From an uncultured Christensenellaceae bacterium (GTDB lineage: Bacteria > Bacillota > Clostridia > Christensenellales > SZUA-584), in NCBI GenBank assembly GCA_964441275.1, contig CAYTUG010000010.1, positions 6,684 through 70,683 of the forward strand: a stretch of 64,000 nt of DNA. Reading direction: 5' to 3'. The first letter of the stretch is position 1, and each line of letters opens with the position of its first letter. Of this stretch, positions 9,375-59,651 are shown piece after piece. Below the pieces are notes generated by a model. The model was not told where the DNA came from, did not search any database, and saw only the letters and a list, made by a program, of their open reading frames with translations. The translations under genes were made by a program, and so were the position numbers.

Positions 9375-9470
9375 AACCTGTTGCAATGTCACCGGCGAAT
9401 ACCGGCGCAAATCATAGCTCATTTTTATAGCTTTTAGACGTTACAACAGTTATATTGCGGCAAGTAAACT

Positions 9471-9513
9471 TTGAGCGATTATGAGTGCGGCTTTATTTGA
9501 CAATAACCATAAT
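9471..9513 (+). promoter_or_regulatory. Putative activator-dependent late promoter of the phage structural operon
   Basis: Tandem TTGAGCG/ATGAGTG with 10-bp period (9471, 9481) and a CATAAT -10-like hexamer at 9508-9513; similar motif upstream of the holin. Confidence 0.4.
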
Positions 9514-9567
9514 AAATGAATGGGCGTAAAGAAACGCCTATTTTTGTTGTCGAAGGAGGAAATTATA

Positions 9568-9768
9568 ATGCTTATAAATATTGTAACCGCATCGGTTACG
9601 TTTGCCGGCACCTGCGCGCTTTGTATTGCGTGTTACTTAAAAGGAAAAAAAGCCGGCAAAAAAATTGCCGGCACAACAACAGCCGTACAAGAACAGCAAG
9701 AGCAAAACGCGTTGATGAAAAAATATGAGACCATAATAGGTTATGACCCTTACGGTGAAAACATATGA
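9568..9768 (+). CDS. Small membrane-anchored phage protein preceding the portal
   Basis: 66 aa from ATG 9568 behind GAAGGAGGA; N-terminal hydrophobic helix; stop overlaps the portal start. Confidence 0.7.
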   Translation: MLINIVTASVTFAGTCALCIACYLKGKKAGKKIAGTTTAVQEQQEQNALMKKYETIIGYDPYGENI

Positions 9769-11285
9769 GCATCACTTTGGCGTGGAAGGAATACGAGCAA
9801 GGGGTTGATTATAAAACGCGTATTGGCCTTTACCGTACCGTAGATTTAAACGAGCGTTTCTATGCCGGGGACCAGTGGGCGGGCATACCGCACGAGGGGT
9901 TGCCAACTCCCGTGGTAAATTTCATCCGATATGCTTCGGCATGGAAAATTGCCGCGGTAACCGACAGGCGCCTTTGTTTAAAATTTATGGCGGAGGGCGT
10001 CAACGATGGAAGCGATATTGGCGTGTACGCGAGGCAGATATCGGCTCACTGCGATCTTTTATGGGAACGGCTTAAAATGGACTATTTAACGAAAGAAGGG
10101 CTAAAACAGGCCGCGATAACCGGCGATTACGTGCAGTATTTTTATTGGGATTCATCGCTTGATACCGGTCAGGCGCTTTCCGGAGATATTGCAACCCAAC
10201 TTATTGACAACGTTAACTATTATCCGGGCAATCCTAACAGCGATGACGTGCAAAATCAACCTTATATAATTTTGTCATTTAGGGAACTGCTCTCAAAAAC
10301 ACGAAAGGAGGCGCGTGATAACGGGTGCGGCAGCTCAAACGAGATAACCGCAGATGAAAATAACGAATACGCCTCGGGAGATTGCGGAAAAATCGAGCTT
10401 GACGACAGCGGCAAATGCAATGTGCTGCTTAAGATGTACAAAAAAGACGGTAATGTGTGGTGTGAAAAATGCGTTAAAAACGCAATGGTGCAGCCGCCAA
10501 AAAACACTATGCTTACGAGATATCCAATTGCCGTTATGAACTGGGACACGCGGAAAAACTCATGCCACGGGGTGGCGGAAGTTACGGGGCTTATCCCCAA
10601 TCAGGTGTTTATTAACAAGATACTTGCGTTGTCGCAGCTTAACCAGATGCAGCTTAGCTTTCCTAAAGTGGTGTATGACCGCACGAGAATACGCGAGTGG
10701 AGCAACAAAGTTGCGGGGGCAATTGCGGTAAACGGGGATATAAGCGGAGCGGCGCAATATCTTTCCCCTCCCGGGATGTCGTATGACGCATGGAAGGGTT
10801 TAAACTCGACATTAGAAACCACTATGAGGATGATGGGCGCAAACGAAGTTACGCTTGGAAACATAAAAAACCCGGACAACACATCGGCTTTTATTGCGAC
10901 AAGGGATGCCGCTCTTGTGCCTTTGCAATCCCAGCAAGAGAGGTTTTATGCTTTCGTTGAAGATATCGGTTTGATATGGCTTGACTTTATTAAGCAGTAT
11001 TACCGGGCGGGGCGCATGATACCCGTTGAGCAAGACGGCGACCGGGTTTTCGTGCCGCTGCCCGATAACGTTTTGCAACAATATTCTATGCGGCTTAAAG
11101 TGGACGTTGGGCCTTCTTCTATGTGGAGCGAGGTTCAAGTTATAAAAACATTAGATAATCTCTTAAAGGGCGGACAGATAAGCTTGAGGCAATACCTTGA
11201 ACGCATGCCGGAGGGGTATATACCGCTTAAGGAAGAGTTAATAACGCAAATCAGCCAAAATGAACTACAGCCGGATGAAATGTAA
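9765..11285 (+). CDS. Phage portal protein (P22/podovirus-like)
   Basis: 506 aa; NERFYAGDQW, PVVNFI, TRYPIAVMNW..RKNSCHG, ANEVTLGN.....NTSAFIA, YLERMPEGYIP motifs typical of podophage portals; position before scaffold and capsid. Confidence 0.85.
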   Translation: MSITLAWKEYEQGVDYKTRIGLYRTVDLNERFYAGDQWAGIPHEGLPTPVVNFIRYASAWKIAAVTDRRLCLKFMAEGVNDGSDIGVYARQISAHCDLLWERLKMDYLTKEGLKQAAITGDYVQYFYWDSSLDTGQALSGDIATQLIDNVNYYPGNPNSDDVQNQPYIILSFRELLSKTRKEARDNGCGSSNEITADENNEYASGDCGKIELDDSGKCNVLLKMYKKDGNVWCEKCVKNAMVQPPKNTMLTRYPIAVMNWDTRKNSCHGVAEVTGLIPNQVFINKILALSQLNQMQLSFPKVVYDRTRIREWSNKVAGAIAVNGDISGAAQYLSPPGMSYDAWKGLNSTLETTMRMMGANEVTLGNIKNPDNTSAFIATRDAALVPLQSQQERFYAFVEDIGLIWLDFIKQYYRAGRMIPVEQDGDRVFVPLPDNVLQQYSMRLKVDVGPSSMWSEVQVIKTLDNLLKGGQISLRQYLERMPEGYIPLKEELITQISQNELQPDEM

Positions 11286-11381
11286 TTATATTTCGTTCAG
11301 TTATCAAAATAGTATAAACTCTAAATGCATTTTTCGCATAATATAAGACAGGGTTGCTGCCTTACCAAAATAGGAAAGTAG

Positions 11382-11786
11382 GTGACGCCCACGCAAGAAG
11401 ATACGTTGGAAAAAGAGCTCAAAGAAGCGTTTAAACGGCTTGAAACGGCAGACAAAGATTGCTCGCTGCTGATAAACAATGTGATTGAAAAAAATGCGGC
11501 CCGTCAAAACGGACGGATTGAGCAGCTGCATGAACAGTTAAGCAAATCGCGCGTTGCGATAGCTGAAACGGGCGGGCAAATTGTTGAGATAAAAGCCATT
11601 ATGCAAGGCGAATTAAAGCTTGTTTATGAAATGATCAACCGCCTGAATGAAAAGATAGAGCGCATAGAAGCTAACACCTCAAAAGAGCAAAACTCTAAGA
11701 TGATGTGGCGCATTGCGCTTATTGCCGCATTGCCGGGCGTAGTATCAATAGTAATAAAAATATTGGAGATCTTTTTAGCCGGTTAG
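11382..11786 (+). CDS. Coiled-coil protein with C-terminal TM helix (XhlA-like phage protein)
   Basis: Heptad-rich N-terminal ~110 aa followed by WRIALIAALPGVVSIVIKILEIFLAG. Confidence 0.55.
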   Translation: MTPTQEDTLEKELKEAFKRLETADKDCSLLINNVIEKNAARQNGRIEQLHEQLSKSRVAIAETGGQIVEIKAIMQGELKLVYEMINRLNEKIERIEANTSKEQNSKMMWRIALIAALPGVVSIVIKILEIFLAG

Positions 11787-11891
11787 AAGAGCCTGCTAAA
11801 CTATATTTGCGTTTAATCGGCAATTAATAAAATGCTTATCAAAGAAGGCTTTAAAGGCCTTTTTTGATACTTAAAAATAAGGAGATTAAAA

Positions 11892-12551
11892 ATGGAAAAC
11901 AATGCCCAACCACAGGCGCAAACGGCAAACCAGCCGGATATTCAAACCGATGTAGAAACCGGGTCAAACGATAAACAAGCGTTTTTAACGGTGCGCTACA
12001 ACAAAGAAGAGTTGCCTTTGTCCCGGGAGGCGGCAACGGAATATGCCCAAAAGGGTTTAAATTACGACAAAATAAGCGGCAGATTATCGCAATTGTCGCA
12101 AAAGGTTGAGGACTATCAGCATATTAACACTCTTGTCAGCGAAATTGCCCAGCAAAACGGAATAAGTGAAAACGACGCTTTCCTTGCACTGCGCCAGCGT
12201 GTGAGCGAAGAAGGCGCAGCACAGGCAAGTATAAACGCTCAGCTTGACGAGTTTATCGCCGCCCATCCGGATTACGATCCTTTGTCTTTGCCGGAAAGCG
12301 TAATAAACGAATGGAAAAGCGGCGTTCCGTTGTGTGATGCTTATGCCGCGTATGAAGAAATTAAAATCAGGCAGGTTAATGCACGGCAAACCAACGAGCA
12401 GAATGCCGCGGCAAGCATGGGGGGCGCGCAGGGAATAGGGGCTGCGGCGCCAAAGCCGCTTTCAAAAGAGGTTATTGCGCAGATGTCGCATTCCGAATTG
12501 GAAAACAACCATGGCAGGATATGGGCATTTTTAACGGGACAGAAAGAATAG
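11892..12551 (+). CDS. Phage capsid scaffolding protein
   Basis: Acidic helical protein, VRYNKEE...AQKGLNYDK motif, C-terminal MSHSELENN coat-binding-like end; directly upstream of the capsid gene. Confidence 0.75.
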   Translation: MENNAQPQAQTANQPDIQTDVETGSNDKQAFLTVRYNKEELPLSREAATEYAQKGLNYDKISGRLSQLSQKVEDYQHINTLVSEIAQQNGISENDAFLALRQRVSEEGAAQASINAQLDEFIAAHPDYDPLSLPESVINEWKSGVPLCDAYAAYEEIKIRQVNARQTNEQNAAASMGGAQGIGAAAPKPLSKEVIAQMSHSELENNHGRIWAFLTGQKE

Positions 12552-12566
12552 AAAGGAGAGATAGAT

Positions 12567-13406
12567 TTGCCTTACGAAAGTTTCAGGCCGGAAATTTTGG
12601 CCAAAGAGCTTATGACCGACAGGGGAAGAGATTGCGTTTTTAAAAACCTTTGCTACAAAGGTCCTATAATCGGCGAGATAGCGAAGAAGGGAGACGTTTT
12701 GCGAATAGCGGGCGTTGGACGCCCTACTGTGCGTGATTATATCCCCGGCAAAGACATAACGCTCGAGCAGAAAAAAAGCTATAACCAGGACCTGTATATA
12801 ACCGAGGCTAAGTATGTCAATGTTGAGGTGGACAGGGTAGATAAAGCGCAGGCGCAGGGAGAGGTGTTCGGGGTTGAAGTGCGGGAAGCAAAAAAGGCGC
12901 TTGCCCAAACGCTTGACGAACACCTTGCCGGGCTGCACAAACAGGCGGGCGGCGTGATAGAGAACAAAAGCTGCAATTCAGCCTCGATACTGTCTACTCT
13001 TGCGCAGGCCGAACAGGCTTTGCTTGAGATGGACGTGCCGTTTGAAGAAGAACGGTTTCTTGTAATATCGCCGGCAATTTATACAAAGCTTGTGCTTGGC
13101 AAGATAGTTTTTTTGCAGTCCAACGCCGAGGTTTTTGGCAAAGGATTTAAAGGAAGCTACTTAAATTTTGGGGTTTATGTGTCAAACTCTATCAAAAAGA
13201 CCGGTGAAGTGCACCATTGCATGGCATTTACCAGGCAGGCGATTGCGCTGGCGGAGCAAATACCGGCAAGCATGATAGAGCGTTATAAGCCCGAAAAAAC
13301 TTTTGCCGATGCCTTTAAAGTGTTGCATCTTTACGGAAGCACGGTTATAAGGCCGTCAGAGCTTATCCGCGTTGATTTAACAACGTCGGAAGAAACACAA
13401 ATATAG
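12567..13406 (+). CDS. Major capsid protein (P22 coat-like, HK97 fold)
   Basis: GEIAKKGDVLRIAGVGRPTVRDY, ITEAKYVNVEVDRVDKAQ, RFLVISP, FADAFKVLHLYGSTVIRP; TTG start behind GAAAGGAG. Confidence 0.85.
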   Translation: MPYESFRPEILAKELMTDRGRDCVFKNLCYKGPIIGEIAKKGDVLRIAGVGRPTVRDYIPGKDITLEQKKSYNQDLYITEAKYVNVEVDRVDKAQAQGEVFGVEVREAKKALAQTLDEHLAGLHKQAGGVIENKSCNSASILSTLAQAEQALLEMDVPFEEERFLVISPAIYTKLVLGKIVFLQSNAEVFGKGFKGSYLNFGVYVSNSIKKTGEVHHCMAFTRQAIALAEQIPASMIERYKPEKTFADAFKVLHLYGSTVIRPSELIRVDLTTSEETQI

Positions 13407-13418
13407 GGGGTGTTGTGT

Positions 13419-13793
13419 ATGGCTAATGTAAGCTTATTCGATATAAGCAAAGGCATGCCCGCCATTTTGCAAACCGAATCTATGACGCCGGCGGCAGCGG
13501 TACAGCAGGTGCCGTGCAAAAAAGATTCGAGGCTGTGCCTAAGGGTTTGCAATGCGAACGAGCAGGAGGACGTTGTGGTGCGGCTTAAAGCGGGCGGCGG
13601 GCCGCGGTGCGTGCTTGGAGATAAAGACATAACGGTAAAGGCGGGAGAGGTTGCGTACATTGCGCTTTGGGACACCGCGCGCTATAAAGATTTGGCAAGC
13701 GGAAACGTTAGCGTTGATTTGGTGGACGGCAACGGCGACGCTCTTAGCGAACAGTTGCTTTTACTGATTACAATAGAGGCGGCGCAGCTTTAA
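13419..13793 (+). CDS. Probable capsid decoration/cement protein
   Basis: 124-aa beta-rich protein immediately after the capsid gene; start moved to ATG 13419. Confidence 0.5.
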   Translation: MANVSLFDISKGMPAILQTESMTPAAAVQQVPCKKDSRLCLRVCNANEQEDVVVRLKAGGGPRCVLGDKDITVKAGEVAYIALWDTARYKDLASGNVSVDLVDGNGDALSEQLLLLITIEAAQL

Positions 13794-13805
13794 AGAAGCC
13801 GGACG

Positions 13806-13833
13806 GGGGGCATACCTGCCCCCTTAAATTTTT
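13806..13833 (+). terminator. Terminator-like hairpin after the capsid/decoration genes
   Basis: GGGGGCA-TACC-TGCCCCC stem followed by TTAAATTTTTT. Confidence 0.6.
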
Positions 13834-13853
13834 TAATTTTGGAGGTTGAGAAT

Positions 13854-14216
13854 ATGACTGCACAAGAAGCGTATGAGATGTCGCTTGCGCTTATCGACCA
13901 AGCCGAAGGCATTGATACTGCCGACTATGCATCAAGAGCGCCTGCTTTAATAGATGTGCTGCAGCGCGAACTTGCTTTTTATGAGGGAACAGCCGTCACA
14001 AGGCGGATAAAGAAACTTGAAGATATTTTGGAGATAGGGGAAGATACTGCAGAACGCATACTTCCCTATGGTTTGGCCGCAAACTTTGCGCTGTCCGATA
14101 AAAACGCGGATATGTATTCGGATTACAGTGCAATGTATCGCGCGCTTATTCGCACGATAAGGCCTGAAGATTCCGATATAACAGACGAGTACGGAGTTTT
14201 GGAGGGGCTTAAGTGA
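13854..14216 (+). CDS. Probable head-tail adaptor (P22 gp4 / tail tubular A-like)
   Basis: 120 aa helical, ILPYGLAANF motif, position between capsid and tail tube B; ATG 13854 behind GGAGG. Confidence 0.55.
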   Translation: MTAQEAYEMSLALIDQAEGIDTADYASRAPALIDVLQRELAFYEGTAVTRRIKKLEDILEIGEDTAERILPYGLAANFALSDKNADMYSDYSAMYRALIRTIRPEDSDITDEYGVLEGLK

Positions 14217-14267
14217 TAATCCGCCATTACCCGGGCGGGCAAACCCCAACGCAAGGAGCGAACTGCT

Positions 14268-16094
14268 ATGGAAAGAATAAAAGAGATTATGCTGCCCGAA
14301 TTAAACGGAGGGCTTAATGTTAACGATCCGGAGTATGCAATACTCGACAGCCAGAGCCACGATATGCTCAACATGTGGTACAGGGGAAAATCCTTAGTCA
14401 AGCGCAACGGTCAGGCTTTGATCGATTGCGGGATAGCGGGCGAGGTGCAAAGCATATCGCCGCTTTACTGCGATTACTATGTTGTGCATTCGAACGATAG
14501 GCTTTATAAATGGCGAGGAAATGAGGCGCAGCTGTTAAAGAGCGGCGTTGCAAGCGCCGAGGGCGTTTTTTGTGAGTTTTGCGGTACACTATATTATCTT
14601 GACGGAAATGAAATATGGGAAATCGCGCCTGATTTTAGCGTAAAGGAAGCGCGTCCTTACATACCTGTGGTAATTATAAACGCTCATCCCGACCTATCGG
14701 GCGGAGATGATAACGAGGCGTACAATATAATAGGTGCTGGATTTTGCGTAAAATACAATGGCGATGAAACATCGGCAGTGTATTCGCTGCCGCAAAAAGA
14801 GATTGACGAGACCGCGGTTTTGGTAAGCATAGACGCAGCCGATTTGAATGAAGGCGAGCATTTTAGCGTGGATAGAACGCAGGGCATTGTGAATTTTGCC
14901 GAAGGGACAAGCCCGAACGGGCCGCCCGGCGCAGGCACTAATAATGTATGGATTAGCGCGTTTAAAACGGCGCCGGAAAACAAACGGAAAATTACGGGGT
15001 GCAAAATAGCTTTGCCTTTCGGCGGGGAGGCATCCGGCATATTCGGGGGCACCAGGGTTTTTGTAACGGGCAACCCAAAGCATGCAAGAACGTACTGGCA
15101 CAGTGACTTAGGGCATGGATTGGGGAGCGGTATGCGTTATTTTCCGGATACTTGCGAAGAACATTTAAACCAAAACAATCAGCCGATAACCGCGGCGGCA
15201 AAAATGGGGGGAGAGCTCGTATTATTTAAACAGAGTTCGATATTTGTGCTTGGGTACGTATTCGACGGAGTTGACGCGTTTTACCCGGTAAGGGAGTGCC
15301 ACAGCGCCATTGGTTGTGATATGCCGAAAAGTTTAGCATTGATTGACAACGCGCTTGTTTTTGCGAATTCGAGCAGCGGAGTGCACATGCTAACGTCTAC
15401 CGACAACAAATCTGAAAACGTGGTAAAGCCGTTATCGGCAAATATAAATAAACTGCTTCTTAGTGAACCCGGGCTGCGCGATGCGTGTTCTATCGATCAC
15501 GGCAGGTACTATTGGTTATGTGCAGGAGGGCGGGCGTATCTTTGGGATTATGAGCAGACACCGTTTTATGACTTTGCAGATTACAAAAAAGCTCAACGCA
15601 GGCTTGCGTGGTATAGGTTTGATAACATAGACGCAAATGTTTTATGCGCCGATGCCGATACGCTTTATTACGGCGGCAAAAAGGGCATAGTATTATTCTG
15701 CAAAAATAAAAGCGACTTTGGCAGAAAATATGACGCTTATTTTACAACTAAGGCGTTTGATTTGATGTGTCCAAACAGATTAAAAACATTTCTAAAAGTA
15801 TATCCGAGTTTTGCGGCGCAGGGTAACATAAAAGCAACCGTTACCATATCAAGCGAAACCCATGATGTGTTTTCGAAACGAGTATTTGATATAAAGTCGT
15901 TTTCGTGGCTCGATTTTAACTGGAGCACATTTACGTTTGACGTTATAAAATTTTCAAGAACTTATGTTGTGCGTTTATCTATGCGGCGCGCCGCCTACAT
16001 ACAAATAAAGGTATCGGGAAGCGATAAAGACAGAGACGTGGGGATATCGGCGCTTAGGATAGAATACTGCTTTAACAACAAATTAAGGAGGTAA
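14268..16094 (+). CDS. Tail tubular protein B / DNA-stabilisation-like (P22 gp10 / T7 gp12-type beta-propeller)
   Basis: 608 aa; LNGGLNVND...MLNMW start, repeated beta-blade character, TRVFVTGNP, YFPD, VRECHSAIGCD motifs. Confidence 0.7.
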   Translation: MERIKEIMLPELNGGLNVNDPEYAILDSQSHDMLNMWYRGKSLVKRNGQALIDCGIAGEVQSISPLYCDYYVVHSNDRLYKWRGNEAQLLKSGVASAEGVFCEFCGTLYYLDGNEIWEIAPDFSVKEARPYIPVVIINAHPDLSGGDDNEAYNIIGAGFCVKYNGDETSAVYSLPQKEIDETAVLVSIDAADLNEGEHFSVDRTQGIVNFAEGTSPNGPPGAGTNNVWISAFKTAPENKRKITGCKIALPFGGEASGIFGGTRVFVTGNPKHARTYWHSDLGHGLGSGMRYFPDTCEEHLNQNNQPITAAAKMGGELVLFKQSSIFVLGYVFDGVDAFYPVRECHSAIGCDMPKSLALIDNALVFANSSSGVHMLTSTDNKSENVVKPLSANINKLLLSEPGLRDACSIDHGRYYWLCAGGRAYLWDYEQTPFYDFADYKKAQRRLAWYRFDNIDANVLCADADTLYYGGKKGIVLFCKNKSDFGRKYDAYFTTKAFDLMCPNRLKTFLKVYPSFAAQGNIKATVTISSETHDVFSKRVFDIKSFSWLDFNWSTFTFDVIKFSRTYVVRLSMRRAAYIQIKVSGSDKDRDVGISALRIEYCFNNKLRR

Positions 16095-16097
16095 GAT

Positions 16098-17030
16098 ATG
16101 GCGTTTGACAGGATGGCTTTTGAACCGCCGGAAGGTTTGCGCAATTCGGAATATTATCCGACTGCGCCCGAAAGCGAAGCTGATGCGCGCGAACAAGTGC
16201 AAGGGGTTTCCGACCAGATTAAAGAATTCTTAAACGAAACATTGCTGCCGCAGGTTGAGAATGCGGCCGCAGGCTGCTCGGGTGCGCAAAAAATAGGCAG
16301 CGAGGAGATACAAGGGGTTGACGGGACAAATGTTTTTGCGCAGATTGTCAGCCTTAAAACGCAGATAGACGATGTTTCGGCAGGCAGCGTCAGCGATGGT
16401 TCTATCACTACCCAAAAGATTGCGGAAGCTGCGGTTACCAAAGCAAAGGTTGCAAACAATGCGATTGGGGAGGCGCAATTAGCCCCAAGCGCCGTCACTC
16501 AAGAAAAGATTTGTAACGGAGCGGTCAGCGGAACGAAGATAGCCGAAAGCGCGGTTGCAGGCAACCATATAATGCCGGCGGCGGTATCGGGTGCGCATAT
16601 TGCCGACGGGGCGATCGGCAATACAAAGATAGCGGCGGGCGCGGTTAGCGCAACGAAGATTGCGGACGGGTGCGTTACCAAGTCCAAACTTTCACAAGCT
16701 GCGCTTGGATGGTCATTGGTGTTGGAAGAAGGGTTGAATTCGGGAAACGGAAGCATAGACATGCCGAGCCAGGCGGGCAAATCCGAAATGATGATACAGC
16801 TAAAAAGCGCGGACGGGATAGTGGCGTATGGCGAATCTGTTGCGCCCCTGAACGCGGAAGGGCGCACCATACCATATATGCACAACATAAGCACTTTCAA
16901 CCCCGGCAATTTCTCAGTGGATTACAGAACGATAACGGTGGGGGCTGTACAGATAAGCTACACATCTTCAAGAGCGGAAACAGTAGGAGGCTCAACCAAT
17001 CTTAAGCGGATAAGCGTTTTTACAAGATAG
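16098..17030 (+). CDS. Tail fibre/spike-like protein with decapeptide repeats
   Basis: Last gene of the module; ten 10-aa repeats of GAV(T/S)xxKIAx type; distinct beta-rich C-terminal domain. Confidence 0.65.
   Translation: MAFDRMAFEPPEGLRNSEYYPTAPESEADAREQVQGVSDQIKEFLNETLLPQVENAAAGCSGAQKIGSEEIQGVDGTNVFAQIVSLKTQIDDVSAGSVSDGSITTQKIAEAAVTKAKVANNAIGEAQLAPSAVTQEKICNGAVSGTKIAESAVAGNHIMPAAVSGAHIADGAIGNTKIAAGAVSATKIADGCVTKSKLSQAALGWSLVLEEGLNSGNGSIDMPSQAGKSEMMIQLKSADGIVAYGESVAPLNAEGRTIPYMHNISTFNPGNFSVDYRTITVGAVQISYTSSRAETVGGSTNLKRISVFTR
16398..16697 (+). repeat. Ten tandem 30-nt / 10-aa repeats inside the tail fibre gene
   Basis: aa 101-200: GSITTQKIAE AAVTKAKVAN NAIGEAQLAP SAVTQEKICN GAVSGTKIAE SAVAGNHIMP AAVSGAHIAD GAIGNTKIAA GAVSATKIAD GCVTKSKLSQ. 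Confidence 0.9.
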
Positions 17031-56847: not shown

Positions 56848-56901
56848 AAAATGAGCGGCATTGAGCGAACCTGTGATGTAACCTTTTTTTGCGGGGATAA
56901 T
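56848..56901 (+). promoter_or_regulatory. Putative activator-dependent late promoter of the holin operon
   Basis: ATGAGCG/TTGAGCG with 10-bp period (56851, 56861) and GATAAT at 56896-56901. Confidence 0.4.
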
Positions 56902-56926
56902 GCATCCTTGCGGAAAGGAGGCTTTT

Positions 56927-57319
56927 ATGGATTGGACACAGGTTGTGACAGCTGTTGTAGGGCTGATGTTTACCGGGGTGTTGTTGCCGCTTATAAACGC
57001 TTTATTCGTGTGGCTGAAAAACAAAACGAGCAATGACCAAATGTTCGCGGCGCTTTGCGAGGCTCAAACAGTTGCGGATGATGTTGTGGCAAGCCTTTCG
57101 GCCACCGTGGTCAGCTCTCTTAAAAAAGCAAGCGGCAACGGAAAGTTAACGGCCGATGATGCAAAAAAAGTGGCCGCATTAGCGGCGGAGCAATTTATTA
57201 GCGATTTGTCCGAGCGGTCGCTTGAGCTGCTGAAAAACAGGACGGATGATTTTGCATCGTATGTTGCCCGGTTGATTGAGGCGCGGCTGGTTGTGCTTAA
57301 AGGAGGGGGAAAGGCGTGA
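56927..57319 (+). CDS. Phage holin-like protein (LL-H type)
   Basis: 130 aa from ATG 56927 behind GAAAGGAGG; N-terminal TM, then LKKASGNGKLTADDAK...LIEARL soluble part typical of LL-H holins. Confidence 0.7.
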   Translation: MDWTQVVTAVVGLMFTGVLLPLINALFVWLKNKTSNDQMFAALCEAQTVADDVVASLSATVVSSLKKASGNGKLTADDAKKVAALAAEQFISDLSERSLELLKNRTDDFASYVARLIEARLVVLKGGGKA

Positions 57320-57936
57320 ATGCGGCGGACAGCATTAAAAGCTATTTTGACAACCTTGAGCAAGCACAAAAAGCTTCGATTATAGCGCAGTTTGAACAGG
57401 CCTACGCAGAGCTGCAAAAAAAGTATGAAAACGTGCCGGCGCAATATCAGTATCTCAAAAATGAAGCGTATGTAAATAACGCGCTAATCGAAAAGGCCCG
57501 CCGTGAAAACATGGCAAACATGGGGTTAGGCGGTACCGGAGGAGCTTCTCAAACTTTGGAGCAACGTAACACGGGGCGGCTTTTAAGAGAGATTGGAGAC
57601 ATTTCAAGACAGCAACAGGATTACAGCGATAACGTTAACATGGCTTTGTACAATCTGAAAACAAAGCACAAAGCCGACTTAACGGAAGTAGAATCTAAAA
57701 CGGCGTCCGAGCGTATAGCCGCTTTAACCGAACAGGCGCGTTTTGAAGCGCAATTCGAGCAAGCGCGGCAAAAAAACTTGTTTGACCAGGCTTACAGCCT
57801 TTACAAGAAAAAACTAATAACCGCAGCGCAATTTACAGAGATGACAGGCATAGCTTTGAAAAAGAGCGGTTCAAAAAAGAATAAAAACCCCGTGCAAAAG
57901 AGCACGCCGTATATTGATAATTATTATATGGTTTAG
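57316..57936 (+). CDS. Phage virion-associated (internal/ejection-like) helical protein
   Basis: Q/A-rich helical protein with AYVNN...RENMANMGLGGTGGASQT motif recalled from Clostridial podophage late proteins; coupled to the holin gene. Confidence 0.5.
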   Translation: MNAADSIKSYFDNLEQAQKASIIAQFEQAYAELQKKYENVPAQYQYLKNEAYVNNALIEKARRENMANMGLGGTGGASQTLEQRNTGRLLREIGDISRQQQDYSDNVNMALYNLKTKHKADLTEVESKTASERIAALTEQARFEAQFEQARQKNLFDQAYSLYKKKLITAAQFTEMTGIALKKSGSKKNKNPVQKSTPYIDNYYMV

Positions 57937-58280: not shown

Positions 58281-58685
58281 CTATTTTTTTTGGTCGGCGT
58301 TTGCTTGCTTATCGTCTTTCATTGCCTGGGCGAGCTTAATGGCAAGCCGAAGTTCTTCACCGCTTACGTTGCGCTCTGCAAGCTCTTCCAACATTTCTAA
58401 CGTAATTCCGCGGCTTGACAGCGCGGGCGATAGAGTGGGCTGATTCAGGGTTTTATAACGGTGCTGCTGCGCAATTCCAAGAAGGTAATCGGCTGAGCAT
58501 ACCAAAGCGTCGCAAAGCTTTTCAAGAACCTCTATTGACGGGCGCTTGCGCCCACTCTCTATCTCCGCAAGAAAAGCCTGGGTGATACCAATGCGCGCGG
58601 AAAGCTGAGACTGCGTTAAACCGAGCTGCTGCCGCTGATGCTTTAATTTTTTGGGGAGGCTGTCCAAATTAGTTACTTCCTTCAT
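58281..58685 (-). CDS. XRE-family CI-like repressor
   Basis: LKHQRQQLGLTQSQLSARIGITQAFLAEIESGRKRPSIEVL HTH; start probably ATG 58685 or TTG 58667, not 58862. Confidence 0.88.
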   Translation of the reverse strand: MKEVTNLDSLPKKLKHQRQQLGLTQSQLSARIGITQAFLAEIESGRKRPSIEVLEKLCDALVCSADYLLGIAQQHRYKTLNQPTLSPALSSRGITLEMLEELAERNVSGEELRLAIKLAQAMKDDKQANADQKK

Positions 58686-58710
58686 ATAATAATTTAAGGC
58701 ACACAAATGG

Positions 58711-58784
58711 ATTATAGCCATAAGCGATAGATTTGTAAAGTATAGCTTTAAGCTATTGACAACTTGTTTGATTTTGGATAGGGT
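58711..58784. promoter_or_regulatory. Divergent promoter pair with two 15-bp operators (lambda-like switch)
   Basis: Leftward TTTACA-17-TATAAT (58739..58711); rightward TTGACA-17-TAGGGT (58756..58784); operators ATAGCcataAGCgAT (58714-58728) and ATAGCtttaAGCTAT (58742-58756). Confidence 0.75.
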
Positions 58785-58808
58785 GAAAGAGAATACGGAG
58801 GTGAGATC

Positions 58809-59045
58809 ATGAGAGTGGCGTTGGCTTTGATACGTGAGGGCGCGAATATTTCGCAGGTGCAAATTTCTAAAAGAGCAGGAATATCTCAGGGCTATTATTC
58901 AGACATTGAATGCGGCGTCAGACGCCCTTCGCCCGATGTTGCGGTGCGCATTGCGCGGGCGCTCGACATCCCCGAATGTGAAATATTCAGCATATTTTAC
59001 AATGAGAATCAAAGCAGAAAAGGACATGCAACACGGTTATCATAA
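58809..59045 (+). CDS. Cro-like XRE HTH protein
   Basis: 78 aa, ISQVQISKRAGISQGYYSDIECGVRRPSPDVA; GGAGGTG RBS; divergent from the CI-like gene. Confidence 0.88.
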   Translation: MRVALALIREGANISQVQISKRAGISQGYYSDIECGVRRPSPDVAVRIARALDIPECEIFSIFYNENQSRKGHATRLS

Positions 59046-59180: not shown

Positions 59181-59651
59181 ATGAGAGAAATAGAAATATT
59201 TTTAAAGGATTATTGGTATGCTACACGCAGCATAGGCAGGTTGATGCTTGATTTATCGGCCGCGCGGCACGCTTATGAACAAAGCCGCCAATATATACCG
59301 TCTACAGGCGGGCTGATAAAAACAAATAGATCGCGCTATGCGCATGACAGCGCGGTTGAGAAGGCGGTAATACTTGCGGTGGATCAATTCCGTGCTGAAG
59401 TTGAAAGCATTGAGCGCAGGCTAAACTACGAAAGGCGCACCATTGAAATTATTGAACAGACGGTTGCCAACGCGGGACTGTCCGCACCTGAAGCCGCATA
59501 CATAAGATTGCGTTACTTCGAGGGAAAAAGTGTAGAAGCTTCTGCGCAGCGTTTGTTTTGCTCGGTAGCAACAGCCGGAAGAATAAGAGTTTGCGCGCTT
59601 GATAAAATAGAGAATGCGGTGGGGAAGGAGAATATTGCAAAAGCGCTGTGA
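59181..59651 (+). CDS. RinA/ArpU-family phage late transcriptional activator
   Basis: 156 aa; N-terminal coiled coil, C-terminal sigma4-like HTH IRLRYFEGKSVEASAQRLFCSVATAGRIR. Confidence 0.75.
   Translation: MREIEIFLKDYWYATRSIGRLMLDLSAARHAYEQSRQYIPSTGGLIKTNRSRYAHDSAVEKAVILAVDQFRAEVESIERRLNYERRTIEIIEQTVANAGLSAPEAAYIRLRYFEGKSVEASAQRLFCSVATAGRIRVCALDKIENAVGKENIAKAL

Follow-up and report, generated by a model that had tools for sequence, protein, structure and literature searches.

A tandem-repeat promoter element likely shared by the unlinked late operons of a gene transfer agent-like particle system in Christensenellales

In a 64,000-nucleotide (nt) stretch of the genome of an uncultured Christensenellaceae bacterium (the window; C10:6684-70683 of a 1.83-Mb assembly in 42 contigs), a tandem pair of short direct repeats at 9472-9487 is flanked by a ketopantoate reductase gene of the host on one side and a phage head/short-tail operon on the other, and a similar pair precedes a holin operon near 56.9 kb, with about 40 kb of DNA coding for ordinary host functions separating the two loci. 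This arrangement raises the question of whether the repeats are a control element that joins the two operons in one regulon and which protein would read them. We compared this genome (G000) with those of its relatives, which are referred to below by G numbers for genomes and L numbers for loci. The answer that we consider likely is that the motif forms the operator half of a late promoter that depends on an activator, is read by the protein encoded at 59181, and serves a multi-operon regulon. The promoter elements at the two window loci are as follows.

9472 to 9487, + strand: tandem repeat TGAGCG-ATTA-TGAGTG with a 10-bp period, proposed operator of the head/short-tail operon promoter
9499 to 9504, + strand: -10-like hexamer GACAAT, 11 nt past the repeats
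56852 to 56867, + strand: tandem repeat TGAGCG-GCAT-TGAGCG, the top-scoring site of the genome
56879 to 56884, + strand: -10-like hexamer TAACCT, 11 nt past the repeats

The four heptamers named in the original prediction, made from the letters of the window, lie exactly where it had placed them (TTGAGCG at 9471, ATGAGTG at 9481, ATGAGCG at 56851, and TTGAGCG at 56861), as do the hexamers CATAAT at 9508 and GATAAT at 56896 and a small hairpin at 9523-9546. When written as WTGAGYG-N3-WTGAGYG (WTGAGYGNNNWTGAGYG), the tandem pattern has two matches in the window compared to 0.01 expected, a number reached in none of 100 shuffles, and these two sites are its only matches in the whole 1.83-Mb assembly. 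This pattern was written post hoc, after the data had been seen, and we therefore built a weight matrix without this genome, using a 36-nt alignment of 31 orthologous sites from relatives. In a scan of all 3.66 million positions, the holin site ranked first (26.3 bits) and the head operon site second (23.0 bits). The information content of the matrix is 1.3 to 1.8 bits per position in the hexamers and 0.1 to 0.4 bits in the spacers.

We found TGAG(C/T)G-N4-TGAG 5' of the portal operon, at the orthologous position, in most relatives (about 20), and about 20 relatives have the motif 60 to 100 nt before the holin start. Conservation in orthologous upstream regions thus extends to the portal, holin, and TerS/TerL loci of many relatives, with the motif preceding these operons across at least 7 genera. 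This conservation, together with the uniqueness of the motif, supports the earlier proposal that a shared signal ties the structural and holin operons into one regulon, and by these comparisons the motif is a real, conserved functional cis-element and not chance. That the two intergenic regions merely resemble each other by chance is exceedingly improbable, and the comparative data have already refuted it: the words are short, TTGAGCGA alone occurs at chance level (4 matches compared to 2.7 expected), and several accessory features are chance, but the tandem motif is unique in the genome, its position, spacing, and orientation are kept before three orthologous operons in dozens of genomes, and it predicts the location of the terminase. 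Among the accessory features are two that had also been put forward as shared signals, an inverted copy of AAAATGAGC and doublets of CGGC with a 10-bp period. The first has 4 matches compared to 1.35 expected (3 of 100 shuffles reach 4) and CGGC-N6-CGGC has 6 compared to 3.7 expected; upstream of the motif, neither is present in any relative, the only instances among 47 sites being this genome's own. Near-chance frequency and the lack of conservation among these sites remove both from the shared signal.

The original prediction had looked to a genome-wide scan for the modules missing from the window, and the matrix recovered the terminase at rank 3 (22.8 bits). This intergenic site on the minus strand (C1:92941-92956; TGAGCGATGCAGAGCT, 11 nt, TAAGCT) lies about 35 nt before genes for a 146-amino-acid (aa) TerS-like protein and a 495-aa TerL (phrog_979, E = 1.6e-42), and motif sites precede TerS/TerL also in G003, G004, G005, G024, G026, G027, and G033. 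On this evidence the regulon in this genome would comprise TerS/TerL on C1, the head/short-tail operon, and the holin operon (56.9 to 57.9 kb). The rank-4 site (C1:145583-145598; TGAGAAGTTTTGAGGA, 11 nt, TAGCCT) precedes three AT-rich genes (C1:142365-145598; 159, 380, and 263 aa; phrog_33355 and phrog_30874, function unknown) and may mark a strain-specific islet with a borrowed late promoter, or be due to chance. Rank 5 (C3:19073) falls within a transporter gene on the opposite strand and was taken as chance. A site of 13.2 bits on the minus strand at C15:49532-49547 precedes genes for a LysM/PG_binding endolysin and a second holin, which possibly also belong to the regulon. This second holin is 49% identical to the product of the 56927 gene, carries an N-terminal signal-like extension, and matches the same holin family at 1.5e-10. 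The endolysin/holin pair (C15:47775-49547) lies just downstream of the end of a tRNA gene and has a leader of about 230 nt.

We took pattern counts for the full promoter architecture over 61 genomes. In the full element, two hexamers are set apart by one helical turn and are followed, after exactly 11 nt, by a -10-like hexamer. In 51 sites that were picked on the repeats alone, the sigma-A signature of a -10 hexamer (A at position 2 and T at position 6, A2/T6) was scored at every spacer; with a spacer of exactly 11 nt, 45 of the 51 sites have it, compared to 0 to 7 at any other spacer. The -10 hexamers read nAnAAT at portal-type promoters, TAAGCT or TATGAT at terminase promoters, and TAGCCT, TAGCAT, TAGCTT, or TAATCT at holin-type promoters of relatives. 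A complete -35/-10 promoter was sought in both window regions, and none was found. If transcription starts about 7 nt past the -10 hexamer, the repeats (TGAGCG-N4-TGAGYG) would occupy positions of about -39 to -24 and stand in for the -35 element. This geometry revises the original prediction, in which CATAAT at 9508 and GATAAT at 56896 served as the -10 hexamers, at distances of 37 and 35 nt from the repeats. With those hexamers the spacers would be 20 and 28 nt rather than the fixed 11 nt, so the argument from the 37- and 35-nt spacing fails, and the repeats are no remote activator sites but lie at the -35 position of the promoter itself. We also rejected GATAAT at 56896 as a -10 hexamer on its position, which is within a conserved leader hairpin. 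Direct repeats about 10 bp apart around -35, with a normal -10 and no -35 hexamer, are the layout of class II activator promoters, and direct repeats replace the -35 element at promoters served by lambda CII (TTGC-N6-TTGC), PhoB (pho boxes), and T4 MotA (MotA boxes). The likeness to the CII, PhoB, and MotA systems is one of geometry alone, as the activator folds differ.

The factor reading the motif is most likely the product of a gene downstream of the holin operon, to judge from its sequence and predicted fold.

59181 to 59651, + strand: proposed activator (156 aa, pI 9.14) with a two-helix hairpin and a sigma region 4 helix-turn-helix

The gene adjoins a CI-like HTH_3 gene (58281-58862) and lies 2.3 kb from the holin promoter, which is upstream on the same strand, and 50 kb from the head operon, while the terminase is on another contig. 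Its product matches phrog_36 (E = 4e-11), phrog_248 ("transcriptional activator," 5e-4), and phrog_3512 ("sigma factor"); it has no Pfam match, and no RinA or ArpU model was found in the NCBIfam search. The original prediction had assigned the repeats to this protein as a RinA-type activator. The assignment holds in that the protein is the best candidate by its fold, its match to Ltr-type regulators, and the covariation of its recognition helix with the repeats; the RinA-type label, which no RinA or ArpU model supports, was too specific. In the AlphaFold model, which is a confident one (predicted local distance difference test score, 86.6), helices 3-37 and 58-97 form an antiparallel hairpin, and residues 102-155 form a three-helix helix-turn-helix that superimposes on -35-bound Escherichia coli sigma-E region 4 (2h27) with a root mean square deviation of 2.1 Å (30% identity) and on Mycobacterium tuberculosis SigD4 with one of 1.4 Å. 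Distant homologues carry the Pfam domain Sigma70_r4 (PF04545, PF08281), and Foldseek searches with the whole protein returned phage DUF1492, Sigma70_r4, and transcriptional activator proteins (E values from 3e-5, TM-scores up to 0.76). Within the Ltr superfamily, whose members are RinA, ArpU, LtrA (Sigma70_r4-like), LtrB (DUF1492), LtrC, TP901-1 Alt, and phi13 Ltr (PMC3753634, PMC3152322, PMC13123087), these annotations match families III (LtrB) and II (LtrA). The modeled structure thus suggests that the 59181 protein fits the sigma-region-4 and DUF1492 branches of this superfamily.

A protein with this fold might instead be a true alternative sigma factor that replaces sigma-A and reads the whole element as a -35/-10 promoter, as could be argued from the sigma region 4 fold, a weak match to NCBIfam TIGR02937 (sigma70-extracytoplasmic function [ECF]; E = 5e-5), the phrog_3512 match, the many phage structural matches annotated as "ECF sigma factor," and the lack of a sigma-A -35 in either region. 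We consider this unlikely. The 59181 protein is no complete sigma factor, because the model contains no sigma-2 domain (residues 3-97, nearly the whole N-terminal 100 residues, form the two-helix hairpin) and the TIGR02937 score of 22.9 bits is well below the cutoff of 42.9. In addition, the -10 hexamers keep the A2/T6 signature of sigma-A, the repeats lie 11 and 21 nt from the -10 whereas a single -35 would lie at 16 to 18 nt, the site is duplicated in a manner typical of activators, and the characterized Ltr proteins are activators (PMC3753634).

A natural change in repeat sequence bears on the pairing of this protein with the motif. The holin promoter of G008, G010, G012, G014, and G016 reads TGAAAG-N4-TGAAA(G/T), followed by 11 nt and TAGCAT. 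In an alignment of 30 regulators, in which these five TGAAAG genomes were compared with 19 TGAGCG genomes, six columns separate the two classes, and two of them, G133W and R136K, are in the recognition helix, which reads C127-SVATAG133-R-I-R136 in the 59181 protein, CS-ATCGRLR among TGAGCG users, and CS-TTCWRIK among TGAAAG users. W133/K136 is present in seven genomes, the five above plus G001 and G006. For the latter two, TGAAAG was predicted from the helix alone, before classification, and both predictions were borne out: G006 has five full sites of TGAAAG type and zero of TGAGCG type, and the G001 portal promoter reads TGAAAGATTATGAAAA, 11 nt, CAGAAT. The TGAAAG form, with the same 11-nt geometry, is found at portal, holin, and terminase promoters alike in the W133/K136 (W/K) genomes, and therefore at least three unlinked promoters changed along with the regulator. 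Mean matches per genome in W/K genomes, in genomes with G133/R136 (G/R), and outside the family are as follows.

TGAAAG type: 3.0 in W/K, 0.17 in G/R, 0.17 outside the family
TGAGCG type: 0.43 in W/K, 2.7 in G/R, 0.29 outside the family

Each helix type of the regulator goes with one repeat type and excludes the other. Mann-Whitney tests between G/R and W/K genomes gave P values of 6e-5 for the TGAAAG pattern and 8e-4 for the TGAGCG pattern, and the TGAGCG pattern also differs between G/R genomes and genomes outside the family (P = 1e-7). In a profile alignment to AlgU/sigma-E, G133 corresponds to R171 and R134 to S172; the underlying family-profile search of solved structures gave marginal matches (E of about 0.1 to 0.8) that we used solely for residue alignment. 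R171 and S172 contact bases in the structure of sigma-E region 4 on the -35 element (PMC1540707). G036, which has K136 and belongs to another genus, was considered as an independent second switch but proved uninformative, as its holin and portal loci are differently organized and show no clear promoter.

The covariation could also be read as shared ancestry only, with the repeats real but recognized by another protein, of the host or encoded by the element. It represents a single event, position 133 does not follow the repeat strictly, further helix-turn-helix proteins are encoded nearby (for example, the HTH_3 gene at 58281-58862), and the Caulobacter gene transfer agent (GTA), CcGTA, requires both integration host factor (IHF) and GafY (PMC11150451). 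We nevertheless hold a different reader to be improbable, since the motif distribution matches that of the 59181 family, the switch residues belong to the recognition helix, in a domain with relatives that read such hexamers, and by its structure the protein is a member of the only class of phage regulators that is known to work through direct repeats in front of terS.

In the mechanism that we propose for the 59181 protein, it would be made under the neighboring CI/Cro-like switch and would bind both repeats with the helix-turn-helix of its C-terminal sigma region 4, probably in the form of two subunits arranged head to tail and joined by the N-terminal helical hairpin. It would then bring sigma-A RNA polymerase to promoters that lack a -35 but have a housekeeping-type -10, with invariant A2 and T6, exactly 11 nt downstream of the repeats. 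Binding, stoichiometry, sigma-A use, transcription starts, and terminator function are all features that we infer.

Several observations weigh against this proposal. The W/K clade is monophyletic and so represents one evolutionary event, and shared ancestry alone could link the helix and repeat changes. Only two of the six class-discriminating columns fall in the recognition helix. In G030 and G033, Arg instead of Gly is found in position 133 although their repeats are TGAGCG, which leaves residue 136 as the only one that follows the repeat in all cases; residue 136 aligns with I174 of sigma-E, which is not among the listed base contacts. A symmetric dimer would be expected to prefer inverted over direct repeats, and the 59181 gene is not adjacent to its proposed targets, unlike the regulator genes of characterized Ltr systems. 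Among the lesser sites, the first gene after the rank-4 site is present in no other genome searched, the endolysin site on C15 is weak and unconserved, and the endolysin has one true homologue among the relatives (G013), with no motif upstream. A search of sequence runs matched the window in bioreactor and wastewater metagenomes, all of them DNA, and in no RNA run.

The head operon promoter is followed by features that may add a second layer of control.

9507 to 9517, + strand: block CCATAATAAAT around the predicted start, conserved at a fixed distance; includes CATAAT at 9508
9518 to 9546, + strand: leader hairpin GGGCGT-AAAGAA-ACGCC with a T-run, found by the terminator scan, between the promoter and the first ribosome-binding site

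The small hairpin with a T-rich tail at 9523-9546, which had been noticed earlier as following the promoter, was flagged here as terminator-like and is conserved in the leaders of relatives: about 14 portal-type leaders have a hairpin and T-run 15 to 45 nt past the -10, with differing stem sequences. A strict detector found a hairpin in 10 of 23 leaders compared to 0.18 in shuffles (maximum, 3). The head leader hairpin must be transcribed, because the first ribosome-binding site follows within 10 nt. These findings suggest that the hairpin at 9518-9546 is a conserved leader terminator that could act in attenuation or antitermination, and it would add a second checkpoint at the head operon. The block CCATAATAAAT of this genome reads CCATAACGAGA in most relatives of the genus, with the same offset in L004 to L010 and L025, and the CCATAACGAGA block is absent at the holin and terminase promoters; at the predicted transcription start of the head operon it may be a pause or loading site. 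The CCATAACGAGA block resembles a -10-like element within the initially transcribed region.

A more speculative extension, which we regard as rather unlikely, is that the 59181 activator also lets polymerase read through the leader terminator, about 10 to 35 nt into the transcript, as lambda Q or GafZ does. The activator would then stay on the polymerase or load a partner, and the CCATAACGAGA block would be the pause or loading site. If this were true, an Ltr-type "partial sigma" would combine the roles of promoter-specificity factor and antiterminator, and the two-residue switch would amount to a simple reprogrammable promoter code for a Gram-positive GTA.

The genes that follow the head promoter make up one operon.

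9568 to 17030, + strand: head/short-tail operon, beginning with a 66-aa membrane open reading frame (ORF), portal, 134-aa protein, and scaffold-like 219-aa protein, followed by head genes

The portal (9765-11285) is P22-like, and the head genes are followed through the major head protein (12567-13406), two small proteins, a 608-aa virion protein, and a tail fiber-like 310-aa protein. The 66-aa ORF (9568-9768) has a hydrophobic N terminus and an ATGA overlap with the portal start; it has no family match and stands in front of the portal in other genera too (33 to 45% identity in G024 and G026). The promoter-to-portal distance is 665 to 1168 nt in G005, G011, G018, and G022, and extra genes have therefore been inserted between the two in these genomes. 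At L006 (G005:C32), a second, partly degenerate portal-type promoter (TGAGCGATTTAGCGAG ... ATGGCCATAACGAGACA) lies about 1430 nt upstream of the portal.

At the second window locus, the leader and genes are as follows.

56891 to 56911, + strand: hairpin GCGGGGA-TAATGCA-TCCTTGC with no T-run, from about +1 to just before the ribosome-binding site
56927 to 57319, + strand: holin-like 130-aa gene (phrog_36209, E = 8e-5), conserved across the family
57316 to 57936, + strand: 206-aa gene overlapping the holin stop, with no Pfam, PHROG, or NCBIfam match

A GGGC...GCCC hairpin with compensatory changes is found at the same place in the holin leaders of relatives, and this holin leader hairpin is likely a stabilizer of the 5' end. 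The 206-aa gene could, by its position, encode a lysis partner.

The distribution of these genes bears on what kind of element the proposed regulon serves. The portal is a single-copy gene, 73 to 89% identical between genomes, that occurs in six more genera of the family besides its own genus, where 19 of 22 genomes have it. The regulator and the holin share the phylogenetic distribution of the portal, with essentially no occurrence outside the family, and the regulator is found in all 22 genus genomes and most of the family. Host genes flank the terminase, head, and lysis loci, which are not linked to one another. Together, these data are most consistent with a vertically inherited, domesticated, and dispersed GTA-like particle system of Christensenellales, rather than a prophage. 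In three genomes of other genera (G024:C1:2530518-2578944, G033, and G030), the modules lie within about 25 to 50 kb, with 3 to 5 motif-bearing promoters in a row, while in this genus they are spread across different contigs, which suggests a progressive dispersal of the element.

We compared this system with three kinds of known ones. Ltr activators bind direct repeats upstream of terS, with specificity set by the C-terminal part (PMC3753634), and phi13 Ltr and TP901-1 Alt work with a sigma-A TATA box (PMC13123087). The 59181 protein is similarly a small basic protein beside a CI-type switch (156 aa, compared to about 130 to 170 aa for the class); the proposed promoters likewise have direct repeats before terS and late genes, a sigma-A -10, and no good -35; and specificity appears to be set in the C-terminal helix-turn-helix, here as judged from one helix-repeat covariation event. 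In contrast, this system has two hexamers 10 bp apart at -35, whereas Ltr systems have 3 or 4 longer repeats at about -107 to -32. It also serves at least three unlinked operons rather than one operon just downstream of the regulator gene, and it is chromosomal, vertically inherited, and family-wide rather than part of a mobile prophage.

The closest likeness in the particle genes is to FpGTA of Faecalibacterium prausnitzii, also a podovirus-like domesticated particle system in separate loci of anaerobic Clostridia (PMC12946183). There, the packaging and head genes are together, and the tail and lysis genes are elsewhere; the same study found GTA-like packaging from Christensenellaceae genomes in fecal virus-like particles, and its description of FpGTA includes no promoter or regulator (PMC12946183). 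Unlike in FpGTA, the terminase here is also unlinked from the portal, and this system is known from genes alone. As with GafY/GafZ of CcGTA and GafA of RcGTA (PMC11150451), a dedicated activator would coordinate a main cluster and accessory loci elsewhere. Control may also be two-tiered, as with GafY/GafZ, where promoter activation is combined with terminators to bypass. Those terminators are inside the GTA operon, whereas the one proposed here is in the 5' leader before the first gene, and both the proteins and the lineage are unrelated to the Gaf systems.

The recognition of GTA-like particles among the Clostridia of the gut and of digesters is recent. The promoter code described here (two hexamers, 11 nt, -10) is searchable, so that the unlinked terminase, head, and lysis operons, and with them the complete regulon, can be mapped by sequence in any genome of the family. 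It also names a likely master activator, and the natural swap of G133W/R136K with TGAGCG to TGAAAG makes the protein-DNA code testable. Ltr activators have so far been known as single-operon switches of mobile phages; here, one has apparently been retained by the host for a scattered chromosomal regulon, in parallel to the unrelated GafA and GafY of alphaproteobacterial GTAs.

One further observation concerns the assembly itself. The smallest contigs of this genome (C27 to C42) are distinctly lower in G+C (37 to 41%, compared to 43 to 45%) and may be plasmid, phage, or a binning contaminant.

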